61,212 bases of DNA from an uncultured Gammaproteobacteria bacterium (GCA_964648865.1 CAZYLV010000006.1:1-61212), one strand, 5' to 3'; counted from the stretch's first letter, positions 1 to 59,499 are shown. Translations and numbers: made by a program. Notes: generated by a model not told the origin, from the sequence alone.

Positions 1-622
1 CGACGTTGTCCGCGATGACCGCGGGGTTGCGCGGGTCGTCCTCGGGGATGCCCTTCTCGACCTTGCCGACCATGTCGGCGCCGACGTCCGCGGCCTTGGT
101 GAAGATGCCGCCGCCCAGCCGGGCGAAGACCGAGATGAGCGAGGCGCCGAAGGCCAGGCCCACCAGCGCCGGCAGGTTCTTGGTCGCCGCATAGAAGCCG
201 GCGACGCCCATGAGCCCGAGGCCCACGACCATGAGTCCGGTCACCGCGCCGCCTTTGACGGCCACGCCGAGCGCCGCGTCCATGCCCTTCTTGGCGGCCT
301 CTGCGGTGCGCACGTTGGCGCGCACGGCCACGTGCATGCCGATGTAGCCGGCCAGCGCCGAGAGCACCGCGCCGACCGCGAAGCCCGCGGCGATCTTCCA
401 GTCGAGCAGGAAGCCGATGACCGCGAACAGCACGATGCCGATCCAGAAGACCGTCTTGTACTGGCGGTTGAGGTAGGCCATGGCACCTTCCTGGATGGCC
501 TTGGCGATGCCGATCATCTTGCCCTCGCCGGCAGGCAGGGCGATGATGGAGCGGGTGAGGTAGAGGCCGTAGGCGATGGCCAGCACCGCTGAGACGAGCG
601 CGAAGACGAGCGATTGGTTCAT
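1..622 (-). CDS. hppA: Membrane-bound Na+/H+-translocating pyrophosphatase, N-terminal part (runs off window start)
   Basis: Manual translation from ATG 622: [10 protein letters not shown]...[14 protein letters not shown]...[38 protein letters not shown], which contains the M-PPase signature motifs. Not in the ORF track because it is truncated. Confidence 0.95.
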
Positions 623-667
623 ACTGCGGCGTAAGAAAAAGCCCGGAATAGGGGCAGAACGCCATCC

Positions 668-697
668 ATCATAGGAAGCGGCGCCCCCAGGTGTCAA
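668..697 (-). promoter_or_regulatory. sigma70-type promoter of hppA
   Basis: On the minus strand, TTGACA (692-697), 18-nt spacer, TATGAT (668-673). Confidence 0.55.
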
Positions 698-711
698 ACG
701 TCTTCCCCAGC

Positions 712-1326
712 ATGTCCACACCCGGTTTCCACAGGGAACGCGACTGGTACGCCCGCGGTGCGCGCCTCGTCCTCGGCGCGGACGAAGCCGGCGCCGGCGC
801 GTGGGCGGGCCCCATCGTGGCCGCGGCCGCGTCCGTGCCGCTCACCTCCCGTCTCGGGGGCATCGACGATTCCAAGCGCATCGGCGCGGCTGCCCGCGAG
901 CGGTTGCTGGCGTCGTTCCCGACGCGGGGCGTGCGCTTCGCCACCGGGGAGGCCACGGTGGAGGAGATCGAGGCGCTGGGGCTGCGGCAGGCCAATCTCT
1001 TGGCGCTCAAGAGGGCGGTCGAGGCCTTCGGCGAACGGCCGGACGTGGTGCTCGTGGATTACTACCGCATCCCGGGCCTCGCCTGCCCGCAGGAGCCGAC
1101 GGTCCATGGCGACCGTCTGGTGAAGTCCATCGCCGCGGCCTCGATCGTCGCCAAGGTCACGAGGGATCGCCTGCTCGCAGCGGCGGACGCCACGTATCCC
1201 GGCTACGGTTTGGCGGTACATAAGGGGTATGGGACGCCGGAACACGCGGCGGCGCTTCGTCGCCTCGGTCCGTCGCCGATCCACCGCCTCCGTTTCGCCC
1301 CGGTGGCCGCGACCCTCGCCGGTTGA
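712..1326 (+). CDS. rnhB: Ribonuclease HII
   Basis: [34 protein letters not shown] and HKGYGTPEH motifs. ATG 712 is preferred over GTG 691, which overlaps the hppA -35. Confidence 0.93.
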
Positions 1327-1332
1327 CCCTCC

Positions 1333-2760
1333 GTGGACGGCTTGTTATGGTTGAGCGGCTGCCTCGAGAATAATGATTCCTTTTTGGCCCTGTTAAGCCA
1401 ATCTGTGAAGAATCGACTCGCGCAAATCGCCCTCGCTTTCGCTCTCCGGGTCCTGACGGCACTGACCGCCCCCGAGGGTCCGCTGCCCAAGACGCTGCGG
1501 TTCCTGGCCGCACCGCTGCGCGGGCTCGGGCGCGTCCTGTTCAAGTACGGGTTCGTCCCGCTCTACGCCGTGGGCTACGCCCTCAAGCGTGCCGTCCGCC
1601 GTGTCGTCACCCCGGCCAAGAACCGCTTCATGTTCCTGATGGCCAACCGCTATCTGGCGCATGGGCTGATCATCGCCATCGCCCTGGTCACCTCAGCGGT
1701 CTCGTTGCGGGCCCGTGAGGTGCGCGCCGAGAATCTCGGGGAACAGAGCCTGCTGTTCCGGCTGGTGCGCGGCGAGGACTATGGGCTGACCGAGGAAGTC
1801 GCGGTGGGCGCCGTGACGCGTCCGATCTCCTACTTCGAGCCGCTGGCCGTGGAAGCCGGTCTCGACCTCGACGACATCGGGCCGGAAGATGCCGACCTGC
1901 TGACGGCCGGCGGCGGTCTCGCCGTGGTCCAGCCGACCCTGACCGACACCGACGTCACGCCGATCGGCACCCGCACGAAGACCGAGTCTTATGTCGTGGC
2001 CGAGGGCGATACGCTCTCCGGCATCGCCAAGCGTTTCGGCGTCTCCATCAACACCATCCTCTGGGAGAACGGCCTCTCCCCGCGCGACCTCATCCGCCCC
2101 GGACAGTCGCTGCGCATCCTGCCGGTCTCCGGCCTGGCGCACACCGTGAAGAGCGGCGACACGCTCCAGCGCATCGCCGCGCGCTACGCCGTCCCGGCCG
2201 ACGACATCGTCTCCGCCAACCAGCTGGCTTCGGCCGACGACCTGCGCATCGGGGAGAAGCTCATCGTCCCGGGCGGCGCGCCGCCGACGCCGGTCGCGCC
2301 CGCCGCGCCGCCGCGCCAGGTGGCGTCCGTCCGGCAGATCCTCACCGTGGACCGCTCCACGGCCGCTCCCGCCCCGAGCGCCGCGCAAGGCACCGCCCGC
2401 ATGGTCTGGCCCACGGCCTGGCGGATCATCACCCAATACTACGGCTGGCGGCACACCGGCATCGACATCGACGGCGACTACACCACGCCCATCTACGCGG
2501 CGGACGGCGGCATCGTCACGCACGCCGGCTGGGGCCGCACCACCGGCGGCTACGGCATCTACGTCGACATCGACCACGGCGGCGGCATCAAGACCCGCTA
2601 CGGCCACGCCTCCAAGCTCTTCGTCAACGTCGGCGACCAGGTGACCAAGGGGCAGAGCATCGCCATGGTCGGGACGACCGGCCGTTCCACCGGCACGCAC
2701 CTCCACTTCGAGGTCATCGTCAACGGCAAGTTCACCAACCCGCTGCAGTGGATCCGTTGA
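1333..2760 (+). CDS. LysM-domain M23 family peptidoglycan endopeptidase
   Basis: Two LysM repeats (YVVAEGDTLSGIA, HTVKSGDTLQRIA), plus HTGIDID and HLHFEV M23 motifs and an N-terminal TM. The true start may be GTG 1405. Confidence 0.92.
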   Translation: MDGLLWLSGCLENNDSFLALLSQSVKNRLAQIALAFALRVLTALTAPEGPLPKTLRFLAAPLRGLGRVLFKYGFVPLYAVGYALKRAVRRVVTPAKNRFMFLMANRYLAHGLIIAIALVTSAVSLRAREVRAENLGEQSLLFRLVRGEDYGLTEEVAVGAVTRPISYFEPLAVEAGLDLDDIGPEDADLLTAGGGLAVVQPTLTDTDVTPIGTRTKTESYVVAEGDTLSGIAKRFGVSINTILWENGLSPRDLIRPGQSLRILPVSGLAHTVKSGDTLQRIAARYAVPADDIVSANQLASADDLRIGEKLIVPGGAPPTPVAPAAPPRQVASVRQILTVDRSTAAPAPSAAQGTARMVWPTAWRIITQYYGWRHTGIDIDGDYTTPIYAADGGIVTHAGWGRTTGGYGIYVDIDHGGGIKTRYGHASKLFVNVGDQVTKGQSIAMVGTTGRSTGTHLHFEVIVNGKFTNPLQWIR

Positions 2761-2801
2761 TGTAAGCGTTTCTTGCGGCGCGCGTAGGCACTTCAAGTAA
2801 C

Positions 2802-3161
2802 ATGCCCCATATGAACCAGCGCAACCGCACCATCGCCATCGTCGTGCTGCTCCTGCTCCTCGTCGGCATCGTCGGCTGGGTCGCCTACACCAGCGGCAAG
2901 TCGGCGGGCACTGCCGGCACGAAGACGGACGAGACCACGGAGGTGATGGAAGGCGGCACCGACGCGCCGACCGACGTCAACGCCGCGCCCGCAGCGGGCA
3001 CCGACACCGGCGCATCGGCCGGGACGACGTCCGGCGGCGCGACGGGCGGTTCGGCCTCCGGCGCGGCGTCGGCCAAGCTCAAGCCGAGCACCGGATCCGG
3101 AGCGCTGCCGGCCAAGACCGGCGGTGACGTCACCGGCGACCTCGGCCAGCCGATGTTCTGA
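2802..3161 (+). CDS. Hypothetical membrane-anchored low-complexity protein
   Basis: N-terminal hydrophobic helix followed by a G/A/T-rich tail; followed by a terminator. Confidence 0.7.
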   Translation: MPHMNQRNRTIAIVVLLLLLVGIVGWVAYTSGKSAGTAGTKTDETTEVMEGGTDAPTDVNAAPAAGTDTGASAGTTSGGATGGSASGAASAKLKPSTGSGALPAKTGGDVTGDLGQPMF

Positions 3162-3212
3162 AAGAAAAAAGACCGCCGTGCGGTCTGAGGCCGACCCTTC
3201 GGGGTCGGTCTT
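3162..3212. terminator. Back-to-back hairpins between convergent genes
   Basis: GACCGC-cgt-GCGGTC (3171-3186) preceded by an A-tract, and CCGACCC-ttcg-GGGTCGG (3191-3208). Confidence 0.6.
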
Positions 3213-3214
3213 GG

Positions 3215-3850
3215 TCATCCGGGCGGAGCCAGGCCCGGCAACCAGAGCGTCGCCGAGGGCGTCCGCGGTCGGCGGGCGCGCGCGGAGGGGCGCGCGGGCC
3301 GAGGAAGCGGCGTGCGGATGCGCGTGGTGGGCTGCTCCTCGAGGAACGGCTCCGGGGGCGGTGCGGGGTCTGTCGGCGCCAGCGGGTCCACCGGGACAGG
3401 CAGCTCCTGCTGGGCCGGCGGCGTGGGCTCCGAGACCTGGGCCGGTCGCGTCGCGGGCAGGTCCGGGAAGACCGTCGCGTCGAGCTCCTTGCTGCGGGTC
3501 TGCTCGAGCCAGGTCTCGTACTCCAGCGCCAGGTAGCGGCCGGTCGGCCAATCCTCCATGCCGCGGAGCTTCCGCAGGCAGAAGCCCAGCGCCGCCGCGG
3601 CGCTGTGGCCCCAGTACGAGCGGCCGATGCCCTGGTCGCCGTCGCGCGGATGGCCCCGGTCGAACGGCCGGAAGAGGCTGGCCTTGAAGAGCAGATGCCC
3701 CTCGTGGACCGGTCTCGAGCCGCCGTGGGCCAGGATCATCTTGTCGCGCAGCAGCCACAGGTCGACGATGCGGAACGGCTTGCGTCCCGGATCGTCGGGA
3801 TGCGGTTCGAAGGGTCGCCCCTTCGCCGCCTTCTTCTTGGTTCGTGCCAA
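3215..3850 (-). CDS. Hypothetical protein with Pro-rich C-terminus
   Basis: 211-aa ORF filling the gap between convergent/divergent neighbours; no recognisable motif. Confidence 0.55.
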   Translation of the reverse strand: MARTKKKAAKGRPFEPHPDDPGRKPFRIVDLWLLRDKMILAHGGSRPVHEGHLLFKASLFRPFDRGHPRDGDQGIGRSYWGHSAAAALGFCLRKLRGMEDWPTGRYLALEYETWLEQTRSKELDATVFPDLPATRPAQVSEPTPPAQQELPVPVDPLAPTDPAPPPEPFLEEQPTTRIRTPLPRPARPSARARRPRTPSATLWLPGLAPPG

Positions 3851-3954
3851 GGAACGACCTCCTTCCCTCCGAACGTGCCCAAAAACTGGGGAATCGTCAA
3901 GGGGGCGTTGCCTTTTTCCTGCCGCGATGTATGCTCCGGCCGAGGAGGGACGTG

Positions 3955-4518
3955 ATGGCTTCCATCGATCGGTTCTTGCGGCCGCTCACGGCGCGGCTGC
4001 CCTCCTGGGTGACGCCAAACAGGATCACCGTCCTGCGCGGCACCCTGGTCCTGCCCATCCTGGCGCTCCAGGCGGAACATCCGCTCGTGGCGGGCTGGGG
4101 GATCTACCTGCCGGCGATGCTGCTCGATGCCCTCGACGGGCCGCTCGCGCGCCATCGCGGCATCACGAGCGAGACCGGCGCCATGCTCGACGCCACGGTC
4201 GACAAGCTCTTCCTGCACGGCATCGTCTGGCTCGCGCTCCTCCCGCTCGTCGGGGTGCGGGTCGCCGTGCTGTTGCTGGGGCTCGACATCGCCCTGACCG
4301 CGGTCCGCCCGCTCAAGCGGCGCTTCGGCAGGACGGCCCGCGCAAACGGCTTCGGCAAGCTGAAGACGGTCGTCATGGCGTTCGGGGCCGGCTTCGTCCT
4401 CACCCGCACGCCGGACCTCGTCTCCGTAGGGTTGCCGTTGCTGGACATCGCCGCGGCGCTCGCCGGGGCGTCCCTGGCGCTGCACATCATCGATCTCTTC
4501 CGGACGGACGCGTCCTGA
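3955..4518 (+). CDS. CDP-alcohol phosphatidyltransferase family protein (PgsA-like)
   Basis: TPNRIT..R and DALDGPLAR...GAMLDATVDK signature. Start set at ATG 3955. Confidence 0.9.
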   Translation: MASIDRFLRPLTARLPSWVTPNRITVLRGTLVLPILALQAEHPLVAGWGIYLPAMLLDALDGPLARHRGITSETGAMLDATVDKLFLHGIVWLALLPLVGVRVAVLLLGLDIALTAVRPLKRRFGRTARANGFGKLKTVVMAFGAGFVLTRTPDLVSVGLPLLDIAAALAGASLALHIIDLFRTDAS

Positions 4519-4530
4519 AGGGGTCGTTTT

Positions 4531-4932
4531 TCATTTCGAGAAGTACTGCCCGAGCACCGCGTCGCGCGTCATGAGCGCGACGTTCGCCTTGTAGCGCATC
4601 CAGAAGCGCGGATGATGCACCATCCAGACGAGCCGGAACCACTGGCGCACGCGCCGTGGCGGTTCCTGGTGATGGGCGAACTCATGGGCGATGACGCGCA
4701 GGATGGCGTCGGTGCGTCGGGGCTTCATGGTCCGCGGCGTGTACAGGTCCACGGTCATGCTCTTCTCGCCGGGCGTGGTGTAGCCGAGCCGCAGGTAGTG
4801 GAACGTGCCGCGGCCGCGCGAGCGGCGACGCAAGGGCTTCAATTCGAAGCCGGAAAAGCCGAACAACGCTTCGGCGCGGCGGAAGAGGTGTTCGACGAGC
4901 GCCTCGTGGCGCGGATCCAGGAGGTCGGCCAT
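4531..4932 (-). CDS. Small HExxH zinc-metallopeptidase-like protein (SprT/WLM/YgjP-like)
   Basis: IAHEFAHH plus downstream HHPRFW. Start at ATG 4932, 6 nt after TACAAT. Confidence 0.65.
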   Translation of the reverse strand: MADLLDPRHEALVEHLFRRAEALFGFSGFELKPLRRRSRGRGTFHYLRLGYTTPGEKSMTVDLYTPRTMKPRRTDAILRVIAHEFAHHQEPPRRVRQWFRLVWMVHHPRFWMRYKANVALMTRDAVLGQYFSK

Positions 4933-5009
4933 GCCGGCATTGTAGCGTTGACGTCGTGCATCGCGCGAGCTAGGGTCCACCAAGCGTTACGGCAACTGAG
5001 GAGGACGCG

Positions 5010-5252
5010 ATGACGGAGAAAGAAGACGAGCGGGTCACGGTCACGGCGTCGCGGGAGGTGCTCCGGCGCGACCCGCCCATCCACGGGTTCGTGCTGACCA
5101 TCGAGCACGGCGAGGGCCTCTGGGAGGACGGCTACGGCTCCGAGGCCGAGGCGGCCGCCTGGCTGCGCGGCGCCGAGGCCATGGCCCGCGTGCTCGGACG
5201 GTACGGCATCCGCATCCCGGCGGTGCCGGGCCGTAACGAGGCCAAGGGTTAG
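5010..5252 (+). CDS. Hypothetical protein (80 aa)
   Basis: GAGGAGG SD-like sequence upstream, typical codon usage, and a terminator-like hairpin downstream. Confidence 0.6.
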   Translation: MTEKEDERVTVTASREVLRRDPPIHGFVLTIEHGEGLWEDGYGSEAEAAAWLRGAEAMARVLGRYGIRIPAVPGRNEAKG

Positions 5253-5314
5253 GGCGCGATCATGCGCCCTCTTTTTATAAAAAAGCCGCCCGATGGGCGG
5301 AGGGCGCGCGCGAG

Positions 5315-5716
5315 TCAGGTGTAGAACACGGCGTTCGCCCCGAGACACCCCGGGAAGTCGAAGCGGCCCTCCGTCCCGCAGTGTGGGCAGGCGATGGTCC
5401 GGCTTTGCGTCGACCTGACCAGGGTCCGGACCTCCGCTTCGGTCAGGCCGTGATCGAAGTAGTGCCGACATCCCCTGCAGAGGAGCATCCTCGGGATGCT
5501 GATTTCGGCGGCATGGTTCACCTCGAAGCGGATCTCCGCGCCACAAGCGCTACAGGGAAGCGAGAGCTCGGCCCAATTCGCGAACATGCCGAAGCCTAGG
5601 TATCCCAAGAATCGGATGCACGGGACATCGCCATCGTGGACCGTATGCCGTGCCCTGCATGATGGGCACGTGAGGGTCGAGTCGGCGAAGTCCTTGTACG
5701 GTATGGGATTCTGCAA
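5315..5716 (-). CDS. Hypothetical multi-zinc-ribbon protein (4 x CxxC)
   Basis: CPSC, CSAC, CRGC and CPHC motifs. TTG start with AGGAGAAAGGAG upstream and its own promoter. Confidence 0.7.
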   Translation of the reverse strand: MQNPIPYKDFADSTLTCPSCRARHTVHDGDVPCIRFLGYLGFGMFANWAELSLPCSACGAEIRFEVNHAAEISIPRMLLCRGCRHYFDHGLTEAEVRTLVRSTQSRTIACPHCGTEGRFDFPGCLGANAVFYT

Positions 5717-5740
5717 CGCCTGCTCCTTTCTCCTGGTTTG

Positions 5741-5768
5741 AGTATGGCAACTCTGCTGCGGGTGTCAA
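5741..5768 (-). promoter_or_regulatory. sigma70-type promoter of the zinc-ribbon gene
   Basis: TTGACA (5763-5768), 16 nt, then TG-n-CATACT (5741-5746). Confidence 0.55.
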
Positions 5769-5771
5769 GGA

Positions 5772-7286
5772 TCATTCCGACCGCAAGCGATACTGGAGCG
5801 CCTCGGCCACGTGGGCGGCGGCGATGCGTCCCTCGCCTGCGAGGTCGGCGATGGTCCGTGCCACCTTGAGGACCCTGCTCCAGGCGCGTGCCGAGAGCGT
5901 GAGCCGCTCCACCGCGGCCGAAAGCAGCGCCTTGCCCGGCGCGTCGAGGGCGCAGTGCTCGCGCAGCAGCCGCGTCGTCATCTCGGCGTTCACCGCGGCG
6001 CGCGTCCCGGCCAGCCGCCGCTCCTGGATGGCGCGGGCCGTCTCCACGCGCGTCCGGATGGCGGCCGTGGGCTCGGCGTCGCCCTCGGCGGCGAGCTTCT
6101 CCACCGGCATGCGCGGCACCTCGACGTGCAGGTCGATGCGGTCGAGGAGCGGTCCGCTGACCTTGCGGCGGTAGCGATCGACGCTCTGCGGAGGACAGTC
6201 GCAGCGGCCGGAGCTGTCCCCGGCGTAGCCGCAGGGGCAGGGGTTCCGGGCGGCGACGAGCGTGAAACGCGCCGGGAAGCGGACCGAGCCGGCGGCGCGG
6301 GCCACGGTCACGAAGCCGTCCTCGAGCGGCTGGCGCAGCGCCTCGAGCGCCGCGCGACCGAATTCCGGAAGCTCGTCGAGGAAGAGCACGCCGCGGTGCG
6401 CCAAGGAGACCTCGCCGGGCTTGGGGGCGGAGCCGCCGCCGATGAGCGCCACGCCGCTCGCCGAGTGGTGCGGGGCGCGGAAGGGCCGCTCGGCCAAGAG
6501 CGCGCGCTCGCCGAGCGCGCCAGCCACGCCGTGGATCTGGGTGACCTCGAGCGCCTCGGCCCGGCCGAGCGCCGGCAGGATGCCGGGCAGCGCGCGGGCC
6601 AGGAGCGTCTTGCCGGAGCCCGGCGGTCCGGCGAGGAGCACGTTGTGTCCGCCCGAGGCGGCGATCTCGAGCGCCCGCTTGGCGTGCTCCTGGCCGCGGA
6701 TGAGCGCGAAATCGTGCTCCGGCGCGCCGCGCATCTCCGGCGGAGGCGATGCCGCCGCCCGCGGCAGCGGGGTCTCGCCGGTGAGATGCGCGGCCAGCGC
6801 GCGCAGGTCCGGCACGCCGACGGCATCGACCCCGTCGACAAGCGCGGCCTGGACCGCGTCCGCGGGCGACAGGTAGATGGGACGGAAGCCCTCCGCCGCG
6901 GCCAAGCGCGCCACGGCCAGGGCGCCGGGCACCGGGCGCAGCGCGCCGTCGAGCGCCAGCTCACCGACGAACAGCGGCCGCTCGTCGCCGCGCACGGCCG
7001 AGAGCGCACCGGAGGCCTCGAGCAGGGCCACGGCGATCGGCAAGTCGAACCCTGAGCCCTCCTTGCGCAGGTCGGCCGGAGCCAGGTTCACCGTGAGGCG
7101 CGTCCGCGGGAAGCCCAACCCGCAATTGCGCAGCGCGGCCCGGACGCGCTCGCGGGCTTCCTGTACCGAGGCGTCAGGCAGGCCGACCACCGCGAAATGC
7201 GGCAAGCCTTGGCTGATGTCGGCTTCGACGGCGACCGGCAGGGCGTCGATGCCGACGAGCGTCGCGCTCCAGATGCGGGTGGACAT
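5772..7286 (-). CDS. comM: YifB/ComM Mg-chelatase-like AAA+ ATPase
   Basis: VGLPDASVQEARERVRAAL, GPPGSGKT, PFRAPHH, GVLFLDELPEF and NPCPCG motifs. Confidence 0.95.
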   Translation of the reverse strand: MSTRIWSATLVGIDALPVAVEADISQGLPHFAVVGLPDASVQEARERVRAALRNCGLGFPRTRLTVNLAPADLRKEGSGFDLPIAVALLEASGALSAVRGDERPLFVGELALDGALRPVPGALAVARLAAAEGFRPIYLSPADAVQAALVDGVDAVGVPDLRALAAHLTGETPLPRAAASPPPEMRGAPEHDFALIRGQEHAKRALEIAASGGHNVLLAGPPGSGKTLLARALPGILPALGRAEALEVTQIHGVAGALGERALLAERPFRAPHHSASGVALIGGGSAPKPGEVSLAHRGVLFLDELPEFGRAALEALRQPLEDGFVTVARAAGSVRFPARFTLVAARNPCPCGYAGDSSGRCDCPPQSVDRYRRKVSGPLLDRIDLHVEVPRMPVEKLAAEGDAEPTAAIRTRVETARAIQERRLAGTRAAVNAEMTTRLLREHCALDAPGKALLSAAVERLTLSARAWSRVLKVARTIADLAGEGRIAAAHVAEALQYRLRSE

Positions 7287-19525: not shown

Positions 19526-19789
19526 TTACTTCAGCTTGAGTTTCTCGGCCAGCTCGGCGTGGGCCTTGCTGTCCTCGCGCTCCAGGTACCTGAGGAGCCG
19601 ATGCCGCTCGCCGACCTTCTTGAGGAGGCCGCGACGCGAGCTGTGGTCCTTCTTGTGCTCCTTGAGGTGGCCGGCGAGGTCGTCGATCTCCGCCGAGAGG
19701 ATGGCGATCTGGACCTGCGGGGAGCCCGTATCCTTGGCGTGGGTCTTGAACTTCTCGATGATCTTCTCCTTTTTTGCCTTGTCGAGCAT
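19526..19789 (-). CDS. rpsO: 30S ribosomal protein S15
   Basis: DTGSPQVQIAIL, HKKDHSSRRGLLKKVGERHRLL. Confidence 0.98.
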   Translation of the reverse strand: MLDKAKKEKIIEKFKTHAKDTGSPQVQIAILSAEIDDLAGHLKEHKKDHSSRRGLLKKVGERHRLLRYLEREDSKAHAELAEKLKLK

Positions 19790-19952
19790 GTGCGTGTCCG
19801 GGGACGCTCCAGCCGGAGCCGGGCGGCCCTATAAGAATGAACGGCCGCAGCATAGCAGGGATGCTCGCGTGCGTCAACCGGTTGGGGCGTATCGCAATAC
19901 GCCCCTACGCCAGCGTTCGCCGATGTCGTACAATATCCGTTGTCCCGACCCT

Positions 19953-20912
19953 ATGGCCTCCCGCGACATCCGCACCCTGCTCGAGCAGTTCCTCGATCAC
20001 CTGGAGATCGAGCGGAACCGTTCGTTGCGTACGCGCACCAACTACCAGTTCTATCTTGGGCGCTTCCTGGATTGGGCGCGCAGTCGCCGCAAAGGCAAGG
20101 ACGTCTCTCCGGGGGACATCGACGACGAGCTGGTGCGCGAGTTCCGGCTGTGGCTGAACCGCGTCGAGAACGGCCGCGGAGAGGAGCTCAAGAAGAACAC
20201 CCAGAACTACCACCTCATCGCGCTGCGCGCCTTCCTCAAGTACTTGGCCAAGCGCGACGTCAGGACCATGGCCGCCGAGAAGGTCGAGCTCGGCAAGATG
20301 CCGGAGCGCATGGTGGCGTTCCTCGAGCCGACGGACCTCGAGCGCCTCTTGGCCGCTCCGCTCAGCGGGGCGGGCGAGAAGCCCGACGTCATCCGCCTGC
20401 GGGACAAGGCCGTCCTGGAGCTCCTGTTCTCCACCGGCTTGCGCGTCTCCGAGCTCGCGGGCCTGAATCGTGAGGACGTCAACCTGGAGCGCGACGAATT
20501 CACGGTGCGCGGCAAAGGACGCAAGCTGCGCGTCGTCTTCCTGTCCGAGCAGGCCAAGTACTGGATCAAGCAGTATCTCGCCGGTCGCCGTGACGTCTCA
20601 CCGTTCCTCTTCGTGGCCCACGACCGGGCCCGCAAGGGCCGCGAGGACGCGCAGGGGCTCACCCCGCGCTCGGTGGAGCGCATCGTGGCGCGCTACAGCC
20701 GCGCCGCCGGCATCCCCAAGCAGATCACGCCGCACTCCCTGCGCCACACCTTCGCCACCGACCTGCTCATGAACGGCGCGGACATCCGCTCGGTGCAGAC
20801 GCTGCTCGGCCACGCCAGCATCACCACGACGCAGATCTACACGCACGTCACCAACCGGCAGCTCAAGGAGGTCCACAAGGCCTTCCACTCCAGACGCAGG
20901 AAGAAGGGTTGA
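19953..20912 (+). CDS. Tyrosine recombinase, XerC/XerD type
   Basis: N-terminal SAM-like domain, then [35 protein letters not shown] and [13 protein letters not shown]. Confidence 0.93.
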
Positions 20913-20946: not shown

Positions 20947-21023
20947 GCCCTGGTAGCTCAATTGGATAGAGCAGACGGTTTCTACCCGTCAGGTTGCAGG
21001 TTCGACTCCTGCCCGGGGCACCA
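20947..21023 (+). tRNA. tRNA-Arg (TCT)
   Basis: Cloverleaf with anticodon arm GACGG-ttTCTac-CCGTC, TTCGA T-loop and encoded CCA. Confidence 0.95.
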
Positions 21024-37604: not shown

Positions 37605-37676
37605 CGGCCTGTAGCTCAACGGCAGAGCGGTCGTCTTATACACGACTGGTTGGTGGTTCGAATCCACCCAGGCCGA
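37605..37676 (+). tRNA. tRNA-Ile (TAT anticodon)
   Basis: Acceptor CGGCCTG/CAGGCCG, anticodon arm GTCGT-ctTATac-ACGAC, T-arm GGTGG-TTCGAAT-CCACC and discriminator A. The 3' end is followed by CCG, so CCA is not encoded. Confidence 0.88.
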
Positions 37677-37695
37677 CCGATGTCGGGAACCTCCT

Positions 37696-55502: not shown

Positions 55503-55589
55503 GGGCGAGTGGCGGAACTGGCAGACGCACTAGCTTCAGGAGCTAGCGGGCGCAAGCTCATGCGGGTTCGACTCCCGCCTCGCCCACCA
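55503..55589 (+). tRNA. tRNA-Leu (CAG)
   Basis: CTAGC-ttCAGga-GCTAG anticodon arm, long variable arm and encoded CCA; serves as the integration target. Confidence 0.96.
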
Positions 55590-57122
55590 AACAGGAAATG
55601 TCAAATTTTTCGGCGGCGGCGAACTGGCTGGCTCGTCCCGCCGCCCCTCGGGGCGAGCCAGAAATTCAGCGACAAAATCGTACGGCGACACAAAATCCCA
55701 GTCCGCACATTTGCCCGCAATGCGGCGGTTCGTTCCAATTTTTCTCACCAATTGCGAAATCTCCATGAGAGATTTCGCCGAGGCGATTTTTCCCGCTTGA
55801 ATCAAGGTATTTACGAAGTCCCGCGTTGGTTCGATCCAGCCGCTCATCCGCTTTTGTCCAAGAGTCATTTTCTCACCTTTCAGGGTGATTTTTTGTTCCA
55901 CCAGTTCTTCTTTTTTGCGCTTGTAGGTATCTTCGTCAATAAAGCCGTCAAGATAACCCTCAAGCAGTTTGTCCAGCTTTTCCTGCACCACAGTCATTTT
56001 CTGATTTACCTCTTGGACAAAAGCGTCCGCTGATTGGGCCTGCTTCTTTTCTTCATCTTCCAAATATACCAACATTTCGCTCGCCCAATCAGCGGGCAAA
56101 GCAATTGTTTGCGCTTTCTCTACCATCTGCCGCGCAAGCTCTTGTTCTTGGATGTAGGGTGCGGCGCAATGGCCTTGCTTTCTGGTACAGCGGTAGTATC
56201 TATACAGTCCGCCATTTCCTCGCGCAAACTGCGCCGTGAACATTGCGCCGCAAGTGCAGTGAAACAGTCCGCAAAAAGGAAAATCATGCTTTTGTCTGCT
56301 CTTGCGCGGTTTGCCTCGTTCTTTCAACACTTCCTGCGCCCGCGCAAATAATTGCTTTGAGATGAGCGGCTGGTATTTGCCTTCAAACGGCTCGTCTTTC
56401 CAGCGCATAATGCCGATGTAGAGTTCATTGGTGAGGATGTGATACATGGCAGAATTGGAACGCGGTTTCCCTGTTTCGCTTTTCACGCCAAACTCGGCGA
56501 GGCGATGGGCAATGCTGGTAAGCCCATGATTGCCAGTCGCAAACTCCTCAAAAACCTTCTGCACTGCTTTGGCTTCTTTTGGTTCTGGCACAATATTCCG
56601 CAGTCGGTGGTCATATACATAGCCCAGCGGTTTTTGTCCGGGCCATTCGCCTCGCCGCAGTTTGGCGCGATTCCCTCGCCGAACATTTTCGGACAGATTG
56701 TCCACGTAATATTTCGCGTTAGAGAGAGCAATGGATAAAAAGAACTTGCCTGATGGCGTATTCTCAAATGCGAAGGTAGGAAATTTTAGACCTGCCAATT
56801 TCCCAGTATCCAGTAGGTAAATGATCCTTCCGCCATCAACTGAATTTCTGGACAATCTGTCCGGGTTCCACGCCAGAATACCAATTTGATGAGGAAGACC
56901 GCCCTCAATTTTATCGAGCAGGGCGTTAAACACTTCTCGCCCTGGGACTTTGGCAGTTTGCTTTTCAATGAAGGTATCGATCACCTCAAGTCCCTCGCGT
57001 TCGGCAAACTCTTTTGCCTCATGCAGTTGCGCTTCCAAACTTAACACTTGGCGGTCTTCCTCATCCGTGCTTTTGCGGATGTAGAGAAAGTATTTTGTAG
57101 GTTGTGGTATTGGATTATTCAT
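55536..57122 (-). CDS. Large serine recombinase (resolvase, recombinase, zinc ribbon and coiled-coil domains)
   Basis: YIRKST.EED.Q..SL..Q, PDRLSRN, LSENVRRG...K..RGEW.G..PLGY, YIG, CTCG and YYRCT motifs. The ORF ends antisense inside tRNA-Leu. Confidence 0.95.
   Translation of the reverse strand: MNNPIPQPTKYFLYIRKSTDEEDRQVLSLEAQLHEAKEFAEREGLEVIDTFIEKQTAKVPGREVFNALLDKIEGGLPHQIGILAWNPDRLSRNSVDGGRIIYLLDTGKLAGLKFPTFAFENTPSGKFFLSIALSNAKYYVDNLSENVRRGNRAKLRRGEWPGQKPLGYVYDHRLRNIVPEPKEAKAVQKVFEEFATGNHGLTSIAHRLAEFGVKSETGKPRSNSAMYHILTNELYIGIMRWKDEPFEGKYQPLISKQLFARAQEVLKERGKPRKSRQKHDFPFCGLFHCTCGAMFTAQFARGNGGLYRYYRCTRKQGHCAAPYIQEQELARQMVEKAQTIALPADWASEMLVYLEDEEKKQAQSADAFVQEVNQKMTVVQEKLDKLLEGYLDGFIDEDTYKRKKEELVEQKITLKGEKMTLGQKRMSGWIEPTRDFVNTLIQAGKIASAKSLMEISQLVRKIGTNRRIAGKCADWDFVSPYDFVAEFLARPEGRRDEPASSPPPKNLTFPVWWARRESNPHELAPASS
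55584..55732 (+). repeat. Inverted repeat A, copy 1 (149 bp)
   Basis: Reverse complement of 57249-57397; identical by eye. Confidence 0.92.
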
Positions 57123-57248
57123 AAATTTTGGCGTGGAATAATGATTAATGTTCGGCGAGGGGGAAAAAATCGCCTCGATTCCGCCGAAGGCGGAATAATT
57201 GGTGAGAAAAATTGGAATGAGCTTTGCTCATCAATCGCTTCGCGATTG

Positions 57249-57397
57249 CGAACCGCCGCATTGCGGGCAAATGTGCGGACTGGGATTTTGTGTCGCCGTA
57301 CGATTTTGTCGCTGAATTTCTGGCTCGCCCCGAGGGGCGGCGGGACGAGCCAGCCAGTTCGCCGCCGCCGAAAAATTTGACATTTCCTGTTTGGTGG
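57249..57397 (-). repeat. Inverted repeat A, copy 2 (149 bp)
   Basis: Reverse complement of 55584-55732. Degenerate homology continues left to about 57160. Confidence 0.92.
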
Positions 57398-57405
57398 CCG
57401 ATAAT
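57377..57405 (+). promoter_or_regulatory. Junction promoter spanning the internal att-like core
   Basis: TTGACA (57377-57382, from arm A), 17 nt containing TGGTGG, then GATAAT (57400-57405, from arm B). Confidence 0.6.
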
Positions 57406-57604
57406 ACAATCAGCGCGAACCGAATTTGGAGAGCGGGCGAGCAAAATATGACTGCAAAAATTTTGTTAAAAATTTTTGCAACACACTCGCCGCGCGGATG
57501 CGGGGGCGGGCGGCGCATTCCCTCCCCTTGAACCCCTTCCTGCGCCGCCCGAAAAAATCCGCGCGGCGAGAGGAGTGTTTGCCCCGACGAATTGGGGCGG
57601 GCGC
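57392..57604 (+). repeat. Inverted repeat B, copy 1 (213 bp)
   Basis: Reverse complement of 59252-59464; overlaps repeat A copy 2 by TGGTGG. Confidence 0.92.
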
Positions 57605-57614
57605 GCCACCGATT

Positions 57615-57638
57615 GAACGATCCGAATCGTTCTTTTTT
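57615..57638 (+). terminator. Intrinsic terminator after arm B
   Basis: GAACGAT-ccga-ATCGTTC followed by TTTTTT. Confidence 0.65.
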
Positions 57639-57817
57639 GTTTTTCCCGCGCCTTGCCCCAGCCCGCCCGTGCGCGGCGCGGGTTTATGGAACTCCCTTTG
57701 ATTTTGGCGGGTTGCTATTGACATACGCTAGGAATTTTGCTTAAATAATGAGTCCAACCTGGGTTAGGTTTGGATGAGTTTTCGGCTCTTTACCAACTGA
57801 ACAAGAAGGAGGAAACG

Positions 57818-58306
57818 ATGACCCTGACAGCGAAAGACATTCACGATCAGCTCCACCAACTGCTCGGCTTCCAGCCGGGTGTCATCGTGGACTGCACGCG
57901 TGTCGGCAACCAGCCTGTGATGGACTTCGTCGGATCATCCAGGAGCACCTTCAACAACCCTGGTGCTTACATCATGCTCGCCGACAAACTGGCCGGTCTC
58001 ATGGTGCACCTCTCGGAAGTCGTTCCCAGCGAACAGAACAAGCTCGTCATGCTCTGCGATCTTTTCGCGGAAGGCAACGAGCCCCAGCCAGGCGTCGAGT
58101 GGTCGCACGAGAACCGCGTCAAAGGAGCGATCCTCGGCGTGATGTCGTGCCTGCTCATGCTCTTCCGGCACCCGGCACTTCAACTCGTCTTCGCCGCCCA
58201 GCCGGAAAGCCTCGTCATTGCCACCATCGAGAACGGCAAGATCGTGGTGCAGAAGAAGCAGGGCGAGAAGATGGTGAAGTTCCTGCAGGACAACGAGAAG
58301 AAATAA
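57818..58306 (+). CDS. Hypothetical cargo protein (162 aa)
   Basis: AAGGAGG SD before ATG 57818; TTGACA at 57718 upstream; first gene of the two-gene cargo operon. Confidence 0.75.
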   Translation: MTLTAKDIHDQLHQLLGFQPGVIVDCTRVGNQPVMDFVGSSRSTFNNPGAYIMLADKLAGLMVHLSEVVPSEQNKLVMLCDLFAEGNEPQPGVEWSHENRVKGAILGVMSCLLMLFRHPALQLVFAAQPESLVIATIENGKIVVQKKQGEKMVKFLQDNEKK

Positions 58307-58316
58307 GGAGGTCCAA

Positions 58317-59114
58317 ATGGGAAAAATCTGTGGCGCTCCCGGGTGCGCAAACCTGACGGCAAGCGCCGCAGGTAAGGCTCCTCGGAGAATCAACGGCGTT
58401 GAACTCTGTCGTGGTTGCTACCAGCGCATCTGGGAGCTCTCGAAGAAGATCAACAAGCCGATGGAACAGATCGTGCGTGAAGGTGCGCCGCTTCCCAAGC
58501 GTCCCTTGCCTCGTATCGAGACAACGTGTGCGAGAGAGGGGTGCGATGTGGAATTGCCGGAGAATGCCGGTCCGAACGTGCGTCGGACCATCGGCCTCCT
58601 GCACGTGTGCAATCCTTGCTACCAGTTGGCATGGGAGCACTCGGTGAAGAAGGGAGTTTCGATCGAGGAAGCATTCAGGGAGATGAAGCCGAAGCACTGG
58701 CGGCCCGATCCGCCGAAAACGGTTCGGTGTTGCCTGCCGTGGTGCAACGGTGAATTCGTCCCTGACGAGTCCTCCGAGGTGAGCGACGGCGTTCATGCAT
58801 GCGGTAAGTGCCGTTCCTACCTCAAGGTGCTCGGACAGCGTCCTCGCTACAAAGCCAGGGACTGGAAGGAACTCGCGAAGTATGCCATCAAGGGTATCGT
58901 CGCAGCTCCCAACACGCCGGAGATGTGCGCCATGTCCTGGTGCAGCAACGTAGAGCGCTCTTACCGTCGGGGTCCGAACGGTGAGGCCATCTGCAACTCG
59001 GATGGAATCTACCTCTACCAATACTCCAGGAGGCATGAAATCACATTTGAGGAGGCGTTTCGGACGGCTCCACCCCCGCGGCTTCTTCACACGCGTGGTA
59101 GGAACAAGGGATGA
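58317..59114 (+). CDS. Cargo protein with four tandem C-x4-C...C-x2-C/D zinc-finger-like repeats
   Basis: TAAGGAGGT SD and four Cys-pattern repeats (see findings). Confidence 0.8.
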   Translation: MGKICGAPGCANLTASAAGKAPRRINGVELCRGCYQRIWELSKKINKPMEQIVREGAPLPKRPLPRIETTCAREGCDVELPENAGPNVRRTIGLLHVCNPCYQLAWEHSVKKGVSIEEAFREMKPKHWRPDPPKTVRCCLPWCNGEFVPDESSEVSDGVHACGKCRSYLKVLGQRPRYKARDWKELAKYAIKGIVAAPNTPEMCAMSWCSNVERSYRRGPNGEAICNSDGIYLYQYSRRHEITFEEAFRTAPPPRLLHTRGRNKG

Positions 59115-59251
59115 TTCACTTCCACAAGCGAGAAGGAGGACAACATACGGCCGGTGGGAAATTCGAGAAATCGAAAAGTACCGCCGGCTCTTTCATTTTT
59201 CAAAGAACTGTGATACAATTTTTTTACTTTTCGACCTTTATTACACTTGGT

Positions 59252-59464
59252 GCGCCCGCCCCAATTCGTCGGGGCAAACACTCCTCTCGCCGCGCGGATT
59301 TTTTCGGGCGGCGCAGGAAGGGGTTCAAGGGGAGGGAATGCGCCGCCCGCCCCCGCATCCGCGCGGCGAGTGTGTTGCAAAAATTTTTAACAAAATTTTT
59401 GCAGTCATATTTTGCTCGCCCGCTCTCCAAATTCGGTTCGCGCTGATTGTATTATCGGCCACCA
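59252..59464 (-). repeat. Inverted repeat B, copy 2 (213 bp), ends in CCACCA (attR-like)
   Basis: Reverse complement of 57392-57604. Confidence 0.92.
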
Positions 59465-59470
59465 GAGGAT

Positions 59471-59499
59471 TTGACAGACGCCGCAAAATCTGGCATACT
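59471..59499 (+). promoter_or_regulatory. Host sigma70 promoter upstream of rnj
   Basis: TTGACA (59471-59476), 17 nt, TG-g-CATACT (59494-59499). Confidence 0.7.

Follow-up and report, generated by a model that had tools for sequence, protein, structure and literature searches.

A large serine recombinase element at a tRNA-Leu gene with an intact, inverted attachment site between its two modules

Why should a mobile element that is already integrated hold a second, intact copy of its own attachment site? The question is raised by contig CAZYLV010000006.1 (assembly GCA_964648865.1), a stretch of 61,212 nucleotides (nt) that we refer to as the window. Between positions 55584 and 59464, at the 3' end of a tRNA-Leu gene, lies a 3.9-kb element that comprises a recombinase module, a cargo module and, where the two meet, what reads as a complete attachment site of the free element (attP). 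We consider it very probable that this is an integrated large serine recombinase (LSR) element, whose attP region of ~370 bp has been duplicated in inverted orientation as an inherited design.

A repeat search of the window finds two pairs of inverted repeats that abut on TGGTGG, their arms overlapping at this core. The first pair (I2; A and A') has arms at 55580-55732 and 57249-57401 (153 nt, 99% identity), and the second (I1; B and B') has arms at 57392-57608 and 59248-59464 (217 nt, 100% identity); a further pair (I4; 55730-55753 and 57197-57220) prolongs the A repeat inward past an indel of ~28 nt. A single 6-nt block is common to three sites, reading CCACCA, TGGTGG and CCACCA at sites 1, 2 and 3 respectively, and the order throughout is tRNA-Leu(CAG), arm A, a minus-strand open reading frame (ORF) of 528 codons, A', TGGTGG, B, two plus-strand ORFs, B', CCACCA and host DNA. 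This arrangement, with A' and B overlapping on a 6-bp core, had been proposed in a first-pass annotation of the window and is borne out by both the repeat search and the sequence. The arm sizes given there, 149 bp for A and 213 bp for B, equal those of repeat unitigs in independent Logan assemblies, but they are minimum sizes only.

The tRNA-Leu(CAG) gene (55503-55589, plus strand; ARAGORN, and Rfam RF00005 at 54.3 bits) is intact, including its encoded CCA, and would be the left (B-type) half of the original attB, the host attachment site; it is the only Rfam match at a permissive threshold. Its last six nucleotides are the core of site 1 (55584-55589, plus strand), the attL, in which the tRNA arm is joined to arm A (55590-55732, plus strand). 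Arm A is the P' arm; its minus strand encodes recombinase residues ~463-510, and it holds a GC-rich palindrome. The core of site 2 (57392-57397, plus strand), an intact but inverted attP, lies between A', the inverted copy of A (57249-57391, plus strand), and arm B (57398-57608, plus strand), the inverted P arm, which holds a T-loop-like CGAAC at 57416-57420 (motif offset 24 nt) and a long GC-rich hairpin. At site 3, the attR (core 59459-59464, plus strand), the P arm B' (59248-59458, plus strand; GGTTCG at 59435-59440) meets the host arm, and contig L095 stops exactly here. The hybrid end sites thus share the CCACCA core with the target and leave tRNA-Leu intact, as in LSR integrative elements, and a foreign origin is indicated by the GC content of the element, which is 45-60% within a host of ~70%.

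The recombinase ORF (55536-57122, minus strand) crosses arm A and the core and stops inside the tRNA antisense sequence. Pfam places PF00239 Resolvase at residues 12-160 (1.7e-18), PF07508 Recombinase at residues 181-269 (1.7e-18) and PF13408 Zn_ribbon_recom at residues 282-334 (4.5e-6; 27.4 bits, with a cut-off of 25.3), so that an N-terminal catalytic domain with its serine and arginines is followed by the Recombinase and zinc-ribbon domains that characterise LSRs. Y14, R16, S18 and the run D88-R89-L90-S91-R92 are invariant in nine homologues. The relatives in the PDB are the SPbeta and A118 integrases, both distant (E ~1e-11), the C-terminal domain of A118 integrase matching residues 171-316, and the NCBIfam matches, the best of them to CcrB and CcrA (84 vs 900 bits) and another to XisF, fall far below their cut-offs. 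Residues ~340-420 are rich in charged heptad-like sequence, and homologues conserve, at the protein level, the C-terminal segment that arm A encodes; integration swaps the last ~15 codons for tRNA antisense strand. Judged by its domains, this is an intact LSR of 528 amino acids (aa). Exact-protein look-up of the recombinase and of a flanking ABC-type protein gave no match. ORF calls find no second recombinase gene or remnant in the element, and no recombination directionality factor is evident among its ORFs in Pfam, NCBIfam or PADLOC, the cargo being unrelated between elements.

Is the arrangement peculiar to this genome? Recombinase relatives, 53-86% identical, occur in 14 genome contigs, all from metagenome-assembled genomes of Patescibacteria, and a metagenome scan gave more than 437 further matches, 80 of which were kept for analysis. 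A self-BLAST pipeline over the genome contigs and the kept metagenome loci (numbered with the prefix L) identified ~65 related loci, nearly all from Patescibacteria and with recombinases 53-92% identical, in which the recombinase gene lies between the arms of an A/A' pair (100-170 nt, with identity mostly of 96-100%); in at least 23 loci an abutting B/B' pair (88-250 nt) encloses the cargo. The recombinase gene and a tRNA gene meet end to end, 3' to 3', in 61 loci; the target tRNAs are those for Val, Ile, Lys, Arg, Tyr, Leu and Ala. The check that the first-pass annotation had proposed, whether A'-core-B junctions recur among homologous recombinases, is thus answered by a two-module layout that recurs across a family. 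Many of the relatives' contigs terminate within A' or B, which is the pattern to be expected of repeats that interrupt assembly; in short-read assemblies of these genomes they would seem to do so systematically. IMG/VR contains no relatives, and neither the family nor a duplicated or retained inverted attP was described in the literature searched. The earlier statement that no element with this geometry has been described is to that extent upheld, although the predicted circular form has the geometry of the yeast 2-micron plasmid. We therefore appear to be dealing with a large family, apparently undescribed, of hundreds of related elements in the ultra-small Patescibacteria.

That both modules belong to one element is indicated by its movement. 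Two loci from different samples of one project, L019 (4364-9606) and L020 (810-6053), share a 5.2-kb stretch, running from the outer B end to the outer A end, at 99.6% identity, yet lie at tRNA-Ala(TGC) and tRNA-Val(GAC) respectively, with unrelated flanks; their cargo is a prolyl-tRNA synthetase (ProRS) and a radical-SAM enzyme. This comparison indicates a recent jump between different tRNA targets, and hence that the element moves as one unit. For a second pair, L078 and L081, which lie at tRNA-Lys and tRNA-Val, identity across the block B'-core-A'-int-A is 98.9%. Both contigs begin ~7.25 kb upstream (1-7286 and 1-7250) in unrelated, AT-rich DNA (31% and 37% GC vs 42% in the host), probably large swapped cargoes whose far B arm broke both assemblies. 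For the family, then, two pairs document the same element at different targets.

The cargo itself is exchangeable. In the window it consists of a 162-aa ORF (57818-58306, plus strand; called on the Logan contigs too) that lacks a family match and a 265-aa ORF (58317-59114, plus strand) with cysteine-rich repeats and 16 unnamed homologues; neither matches Pfam, NCBIfam or PADLOC. Some of these homologues belong to ordinary chromosomal surroundings, where the gene calls within ~6 kb include no recombinase. The window and L015, its closest sister element, have arms and inner cargo-frame edges in common and differ in cargo, and in a groundwater run the same B arm and frame edge run into other DNA, from which it follows that cargo is exchanged within a conserved frame. 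Elsewhere the cargo includes ProRS with the radical-SAM enzyme, peptide deformylase (Def) with a nucleoside hydrolase, a GNAT acetyltransferase, an SPFH protein, a Schlafen-like (Schlafen/AlbA) protein, a fusion of sigma-70 region 4 with the RNA polymerase alpha C-terminal domain (sigma-r4/alpha-CTD) and DUF2330. We also observed that in L100 (2718-4304), a chromosomal locus with no recombinase called nearby, a 54%-identical homologue of the cysteine-rich protein adjoins such a fusion protein, which is itself homologous to a cargo protein of L015 (413-1798; 36% identical, E 2e-24); the two may act together in transcription.

Several loci (L014, L035, L041 and L051) are arrays with decayed older copies. 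In three of these (L014 4320-8600, L035 1-3120, L051 1-1660) what remains of an older, decayed recombinase gene has an A-type arm of its own, and a core links this to the B arm of the next element. From this order it would seem that the insertion of newcomers takes place between the arm A already present and the tRNA.

The three sites can be assigned to their classes by a motif of the tRNA T-loop. Read outward from the core, CGAAC lies at +19 nt in the tRNA and at +24 nt in every B arm; for tRNA genes whose mapped 3' end is 2-3 nt further in, the values are 17/22 or 16/21, and every one of the ~30 informative elements shows a shift of 5 bp. The distance of 19 nt from the tRNA 3' end is dictated by tRNA structure. 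In serine integrases the zinc-ribbon-domain motif is 5 bp further from the crossover in attP than in attB half-sites (PMC3783163). The shift therefore identifies B' as a P-type and the tRNA as a B-type half-site, a comparison that supports canonical attP x attB integration, and as the T-loop motif is shared by tRNAs, many different tRNAs can serve as targets. The offset is seen for the left half-site only; the right half-sites (arm A and host flank) have no obvious motif in common. The first-pass reading of the three sites as attL-like, intact inverted attP and attR-like holds, its P/B logic now backed by the 5-bp shift, as do the 6-bp core, the serine recombinase and the integration at tRNA-Leu.

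The junctions themselves are not in doubt. The comparison covered 12 of 25 runs available as Logan k=31 contigs; contigs of this kind prove junctions and inverted repeats but cannot phase repeats of 150-217 nt, and hence cannot fix module orientation. In these independent assemblies, which come from two studies (bioreactor runs X1-X5; X3/X6/X8 for the second study), every junction is present, which answers the doubt first raised about the reality of the assembly: the tRNA-A junction is found in X2 record 9, A'-core-B in X1 record 5 and X5 record 6, and B'-core-host in X6 record 15 and X8 record 29. Contigs stop exactly at the repeat ends, and the repeats form separate nodes (X4 record 26, 55584-55732; X2 record 13, 57392-57604) at about twice the flank depth (in X4, 9.5 vs ~5). 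Each unique segment connects by both its ends to the same repeat end, so that inverted repeats are required whatever the molecule.

What, then, does the inner attP contain? Spanning its core is a predicted split promoter (57377-57405, plus strand; 11 of 12 consensus matches), with its -35 box TTGACA in A' and, 17 nt on, its -10 box GATAAT in B. It would read into B and the cargo, with a terminator-like hairpin and T run (57615-57640, plus strand) downstream, just inward of arm B, at a cargo-frame edge that is kept in L015 and in groundwater runs. Of 54 distinct site-2 sequences, 21, belonging to three subfamilies, have this arrangement with matches at 10-11 of 12 positions, as against one of 45 at site 1, and the cargo genes run in the direction of the split promoter in 17 of 21 elements and the other way in four. 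Followed across A-core-B, the recombinase frame ends in a recurring native tail, ..WW AII(E/D)N(A/S)RT(F/Y)F.., which at site 1 is replaced by tRNA-antisense residues. We do not take its conservation as proof of a functional peptide, the conserved part coinciding with the -10 box and the invariant CGAAC.

Each arm also holds a GC-rich palindrome ~45 nt from the core (arm A, 55640-55680 and 57300-57340; arm B, 57485-57575). That of arm A is kept by compensatory changes across subfamilies even though it is coding, with double changes in six of nine pairs. These palindromes were considered as intrinsic terminators and rejected, the T run being on the wrong side in both directions; nor is any core-like motif conserved at the inner boundaries of B. 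On its inner side A' has a fixed boundary, ACGAACCGCC, and a comparison of 13 elements gives GGCGGTTCG(T) as the conserved boundary, past which lie one or two mini-palindromes of variable sequence. In the window the region upstream of the recombinase (57123-57248) is a decayed inner continuation of the inverted 3'-end copy, broken by mini-palindromes, as seen from pair I4 and the 13-element comparison.

The inverted copy of the recombinase 3' end forms an ORF of its own, 60-80 aa long, made up of the C-terminal ~50 aa and the native tail (57224-57451, plus strand, in the window). Such an ORF is found also in L003, L019, L022, L031, L033, L037, L075 and others, and in at least 13 elements an ATG or TTG falls exactly at the A' inner boundary, just after a conserved CATAAC..GTTATG mini-palindrome. 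Its product could be a small regulatory protein.

Do the modules flip? The two copies of an arm are 0.95-1.00 identical within an element, compared with 0.66-0.95 between elements, from which it follows that substitutions are copied from arm to arm, in concerted evolution by ongoing recombination; since neither excision nor integration renews the arms, this copying points to homologous recombination or gene conversion. Orientation is nevertheless strongly biased. In 61 of the 62 contigs anchored in host DNA the integrase gene has its 3' end towards the tRNA; the sole flipped one is L027, which reads tRNA-Val, A', integrase 5' end. A further group of contigs, seven by our count, joins the integrase 3' end to a B-type arm: those of L014, L041, L063/L064 and L069 look like arrays, and those of L018 and L047-L049, which are short and lack host DNA, may be circles, flipped forms or arbitrary walks through a repeat node. 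L018 reads A'(partial)-int-A-core-B-cargo-B'(partial). The inverted cargo of L049 relative to L032 was tried as proof of flipping and discarded, L049 being equally a legal walk through the repeat node. Inversion is thus possible and probably occurs, most likely by homologous recombination, with one state dominating.

These observations can be accommodated by the following scheme, for an LSR element with a duplicated, inverted attP. The LSR would insert the element by attP x attB recombination, with the crossover within CCACCA at the tRNA-Leu 3' end. The element would carry the whole ~370-bp attP region (B'-core-A) twice, in inverted orientation; on integration one copy would be split, giving attL (tRNA-core-A) and attR (B'-core-host), and the other would stay intact between the recombinase and cargo modules. 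The inner copy would preserve what a single attP would lose on integration, namely the split promoter and the native recombinase 3' end. It would also make each module invertible, mainly through homologous recombination, and once its module was inverted, the recombinase gene would again have its native end and would lie downstream of the tRNA. The inner attP thus has four candidate roles: it may act as the cargo promoter, keep a native 3' end in reserve, serve in autoregulation or provide a substrate for rare inversion.

Several points weigh against this account. The split promoter is absent in one large subfamily, and the tail is conserved where its codons cover the -10 box and the T-loop-like CGAAC, so that constraint at the DNA level may explain this. 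The orientation of the window modules rests on its assembly and on k=31 contigs, which do not phase the repeats. For the window copy, no empty-site joint of CTCGCCCACCA to GAGGATTTG occurs in the k=31 contigs of 8 runs, nor across 12 runs, and no circle-specific junction was seen, the circle junction being identical to site 2. With no visible directionality factor, excision is left unexplained. If the two attP copies are equivalent, the 61:1 bias calls for an extra assumption, selection against flipped integrants. Finally, the host of the window is itself taken to be a member of the Patescibacteria from the taxonomy of the recombinase relatives.

A stronger version of the same account is possible, though we put it forward only tentatively: the duplicated, inverted attP may be no relic but a purpose-built control device that separates a quiet, integrated state from an active, flipped one. 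Integration would then sever the native end of the recombinase and leave its gene convergent with the tRNA, in a quiet and stable state, and a rare flip between A and A' would rejoin the native end and add read-through from the tRNA, an active state leading to excision or a jump. This would amount to directionality control of a serine integrase without a separate directionality factor. The inner attP would be an integrase-regulated promoter for an exchangeable cargo cassette, and the family would be a main gene-shuttling system of Patescibacteria, landing at the T-loop and CCA end of any tRNA gene.

A different possibility, which we think unlikely, is phase variation by two switches, the recombinase often inverting its own module (site 1 with site 2) and the cargo module (site 2 with site 3). 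This would toggle the recombinase C-terminus, the promoter context and cargo expression, with both states common in the population. Neighbouring sites do share one identical arm, so that inversion would regenerate the same sites, the arms are homogenised, four of 21 cargo modules have their genes reversed, and both L027, with its integrase 5' end next to tRNA-Val and A', and the joins of integrase 3' end to B arm in L018 and L047-L049 have the expected form. The exceptional contigs, however, are short and without host DNA, and circles or arbitrary graph walks explain them as well. A frequent switch should break assemblies at A or mix the orientations, and a single orientation prevails in 61 of 62; moreover, the rules of serine integrases forbid the pairings attL x attP and attR x attP (PMC3783163). 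As for the two-switch inversion system of the first-pass annotation, flipping is possible, as L027 suggests, whereas free two-way switching is not what the orientation counts describe.

Could the duplication instead serve mainly the free form of the element, a flip-flop circle like the 2-micron plasmid, with the chromosomal inner attP only a passenger? Two attP copies would then allow integration in either orientation or replication-coupled amplification. The predicted circle has the right architecture, with two unique segments, inverted repeats of ~370 bp, the core in mid-repeat and the recombinase in one segment, and L018, with its lack of host DNA, has the form expected of an assembled circle. 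The 3.9 kb, however, show no evident replication gene or origin, cargo is unrelated between elements, and IMG/VR contains no relatives. Integration in either orientation also predicts that ~50% would be flipped, compared with one of 62 observed. We regard both the passenger role of the chromosomal copy and these uses of a second attP as rather improbable.

The remaining alternatives can be dealt with briefly. The nested, inverted insertion of two sibling elements suggested in the first-pass annotation, as a chance event peculiar to this genome, could appeal to the tandem accretion of siblings seen in L014, L035 and L051, but it is extremely improbable given the same layout in at least 23 loci with recombinases down to 53% identical, the movement of the L019/L020 element as one unit and the single recombinase gene of the window, with no second gene or remnant. 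The sequential integration of two circles with palindromic sites was set aside; it predicts three direct cores, and the middle core is inverted. A chimeric assembly path through mixed integrated and excised forms might be suspected in a low-depth metagenome (~5-10x), but can hardly be entertained when independent Logan assemblies of two studies demand inverted repeats and the layout recurs in dozens of unrelated assemblies, including the 867-kb contig L007.

We conclude that an integrated LSR element with a duplicated, inverted attP is the best description of the locus. Patescibacteria make up a large share of bacterial diversity, and their means of gene exchange are poorly known; the elements would represent an abundant family of minimal cargo shuttles that carry genes of housekeeping type (ProRS, Def, nucleoside hydrolase). 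Their recombinases apparently accept nearly any tRNA 3' end, with the T-loop motif as the putative target of the zinc-ribbon domain, and so broad yet precise a natural landing site is of interest for genome-engineering integrases. The retained, intact, inverted attP, of which we found no description, may offer a route to directionality control or to cassette expression without a directionality factor.

Other features of the window deserve mention. A strong promoter-like site of the host, TTGACA, 17 nt and TG-CATACT (59471-59499, plus strand), begins 7 nt past the right-hand core, in host DNA of ~70% GC that would be the right half of the original attB, and it follows that the element separates the tRNA from the promoter belonging to the host gene that comes next. 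Far from the element, a 458-aa tyrosine recombinase ORF (19536-20912; Phage_integrase and SAM-like N-terminal domains) is followed, 35 nt beyond its end, by tRNA-Arg(TCT) (20947-21023); the ORF could be of the Xer type or mark the border of a second integrated element. At 37605-37678 lies a tRNA-Ile whose anticodon is UAU, a rare isoacceptor that related elements target in other Patescibacteria contigs (L002 1763-1839, L051 and L085).

How does the element compare with systems already known? In mechanism its counterparts are the phage-type LSRs of A118/LI, SPbeta (SprA), phiC31 and Bxb1, with which it shares the order Resolvase-Recombinase-zinc ribbon, a short common core and a motif 5 bp further out in attP than in the attB half-site (compare PMC3783163). 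It differs from these in that its recombinase is only distantly related in sequence (E ~1e-11), its target is the generic 3' end of many tRNAs, its ORF crosses attP and its attP is duplicated in inverted orientation; family elements are, moreover, only 2-6 kb long, with no phage genes, no visible directionality factor and no IMG/VR relatives. Small non-phage cargo elements moved by LSRs are represented by SCCmec (CcrAB/CcrC), Tn4451 (TnpX) and Tn5397 (TndX), but the targets of these are rlmH or GA dinucleotides, they have no inverted inner attP, and the recombinase models are remote (NCBIfam, 84 vs 900 bits).

The inverted sites recall the serine DNA invertases. Salmonella Hin is encoded within the invertible H segment, and Gin, Cin and Min are multi-site systems; as there, the recombinase gene is within a segment bounded by inverted sites, and adjoining invertible modules share a site. 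The invertases, however, are proteins of ~190 aa that act on 26-bp sites with a Fis-bound enhancer and do not integrate, whereas the window has a 528-aa LSR, arms of 150-217 nt and one dominant orientation. The yeast 2-micron plasmid, in which Flp acts on FRT sites within 599-bp inverted repeats, is likewise a circle with two unique segments, long inverted repeats that hold the target and a recombinase in one segment, the corresponding circular form here being predicted. It is by contrast a eukaryotic plasmid with a tyrosine recombinase, an origin and partition genes, and it does not integrate.

The elements may also be compared with the tycheposons, reported as small cargo-carrying tRNA-gene elements of Prochlorococcus (bioRxiv 10.1101/2020.12.28.424599). 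These too are reported to pile up in arrays at tRNA genes and to carry housekeeping-like genes, although their host is Prochlorococcus and their recombinases are mostly tyrosine recombinases. We know of no duplicated, inverted attP in tycheposons. The severing of the recombinase gene by its own integration, finally, has precedents. The Myxococcus phage Mx8 has its attP inside the gene for its own integrase, IntP. The 'suicidal' integrases of the SSV type likewise have attP inside their own gene (PMC7253208). In both, as here, integration rewrites the integrase gene; those enzymes are tyrosine recombinases, however, whereas in the present family only the extreme tail of a serine recombinase changes, and a spare, intact 3' end is kept.

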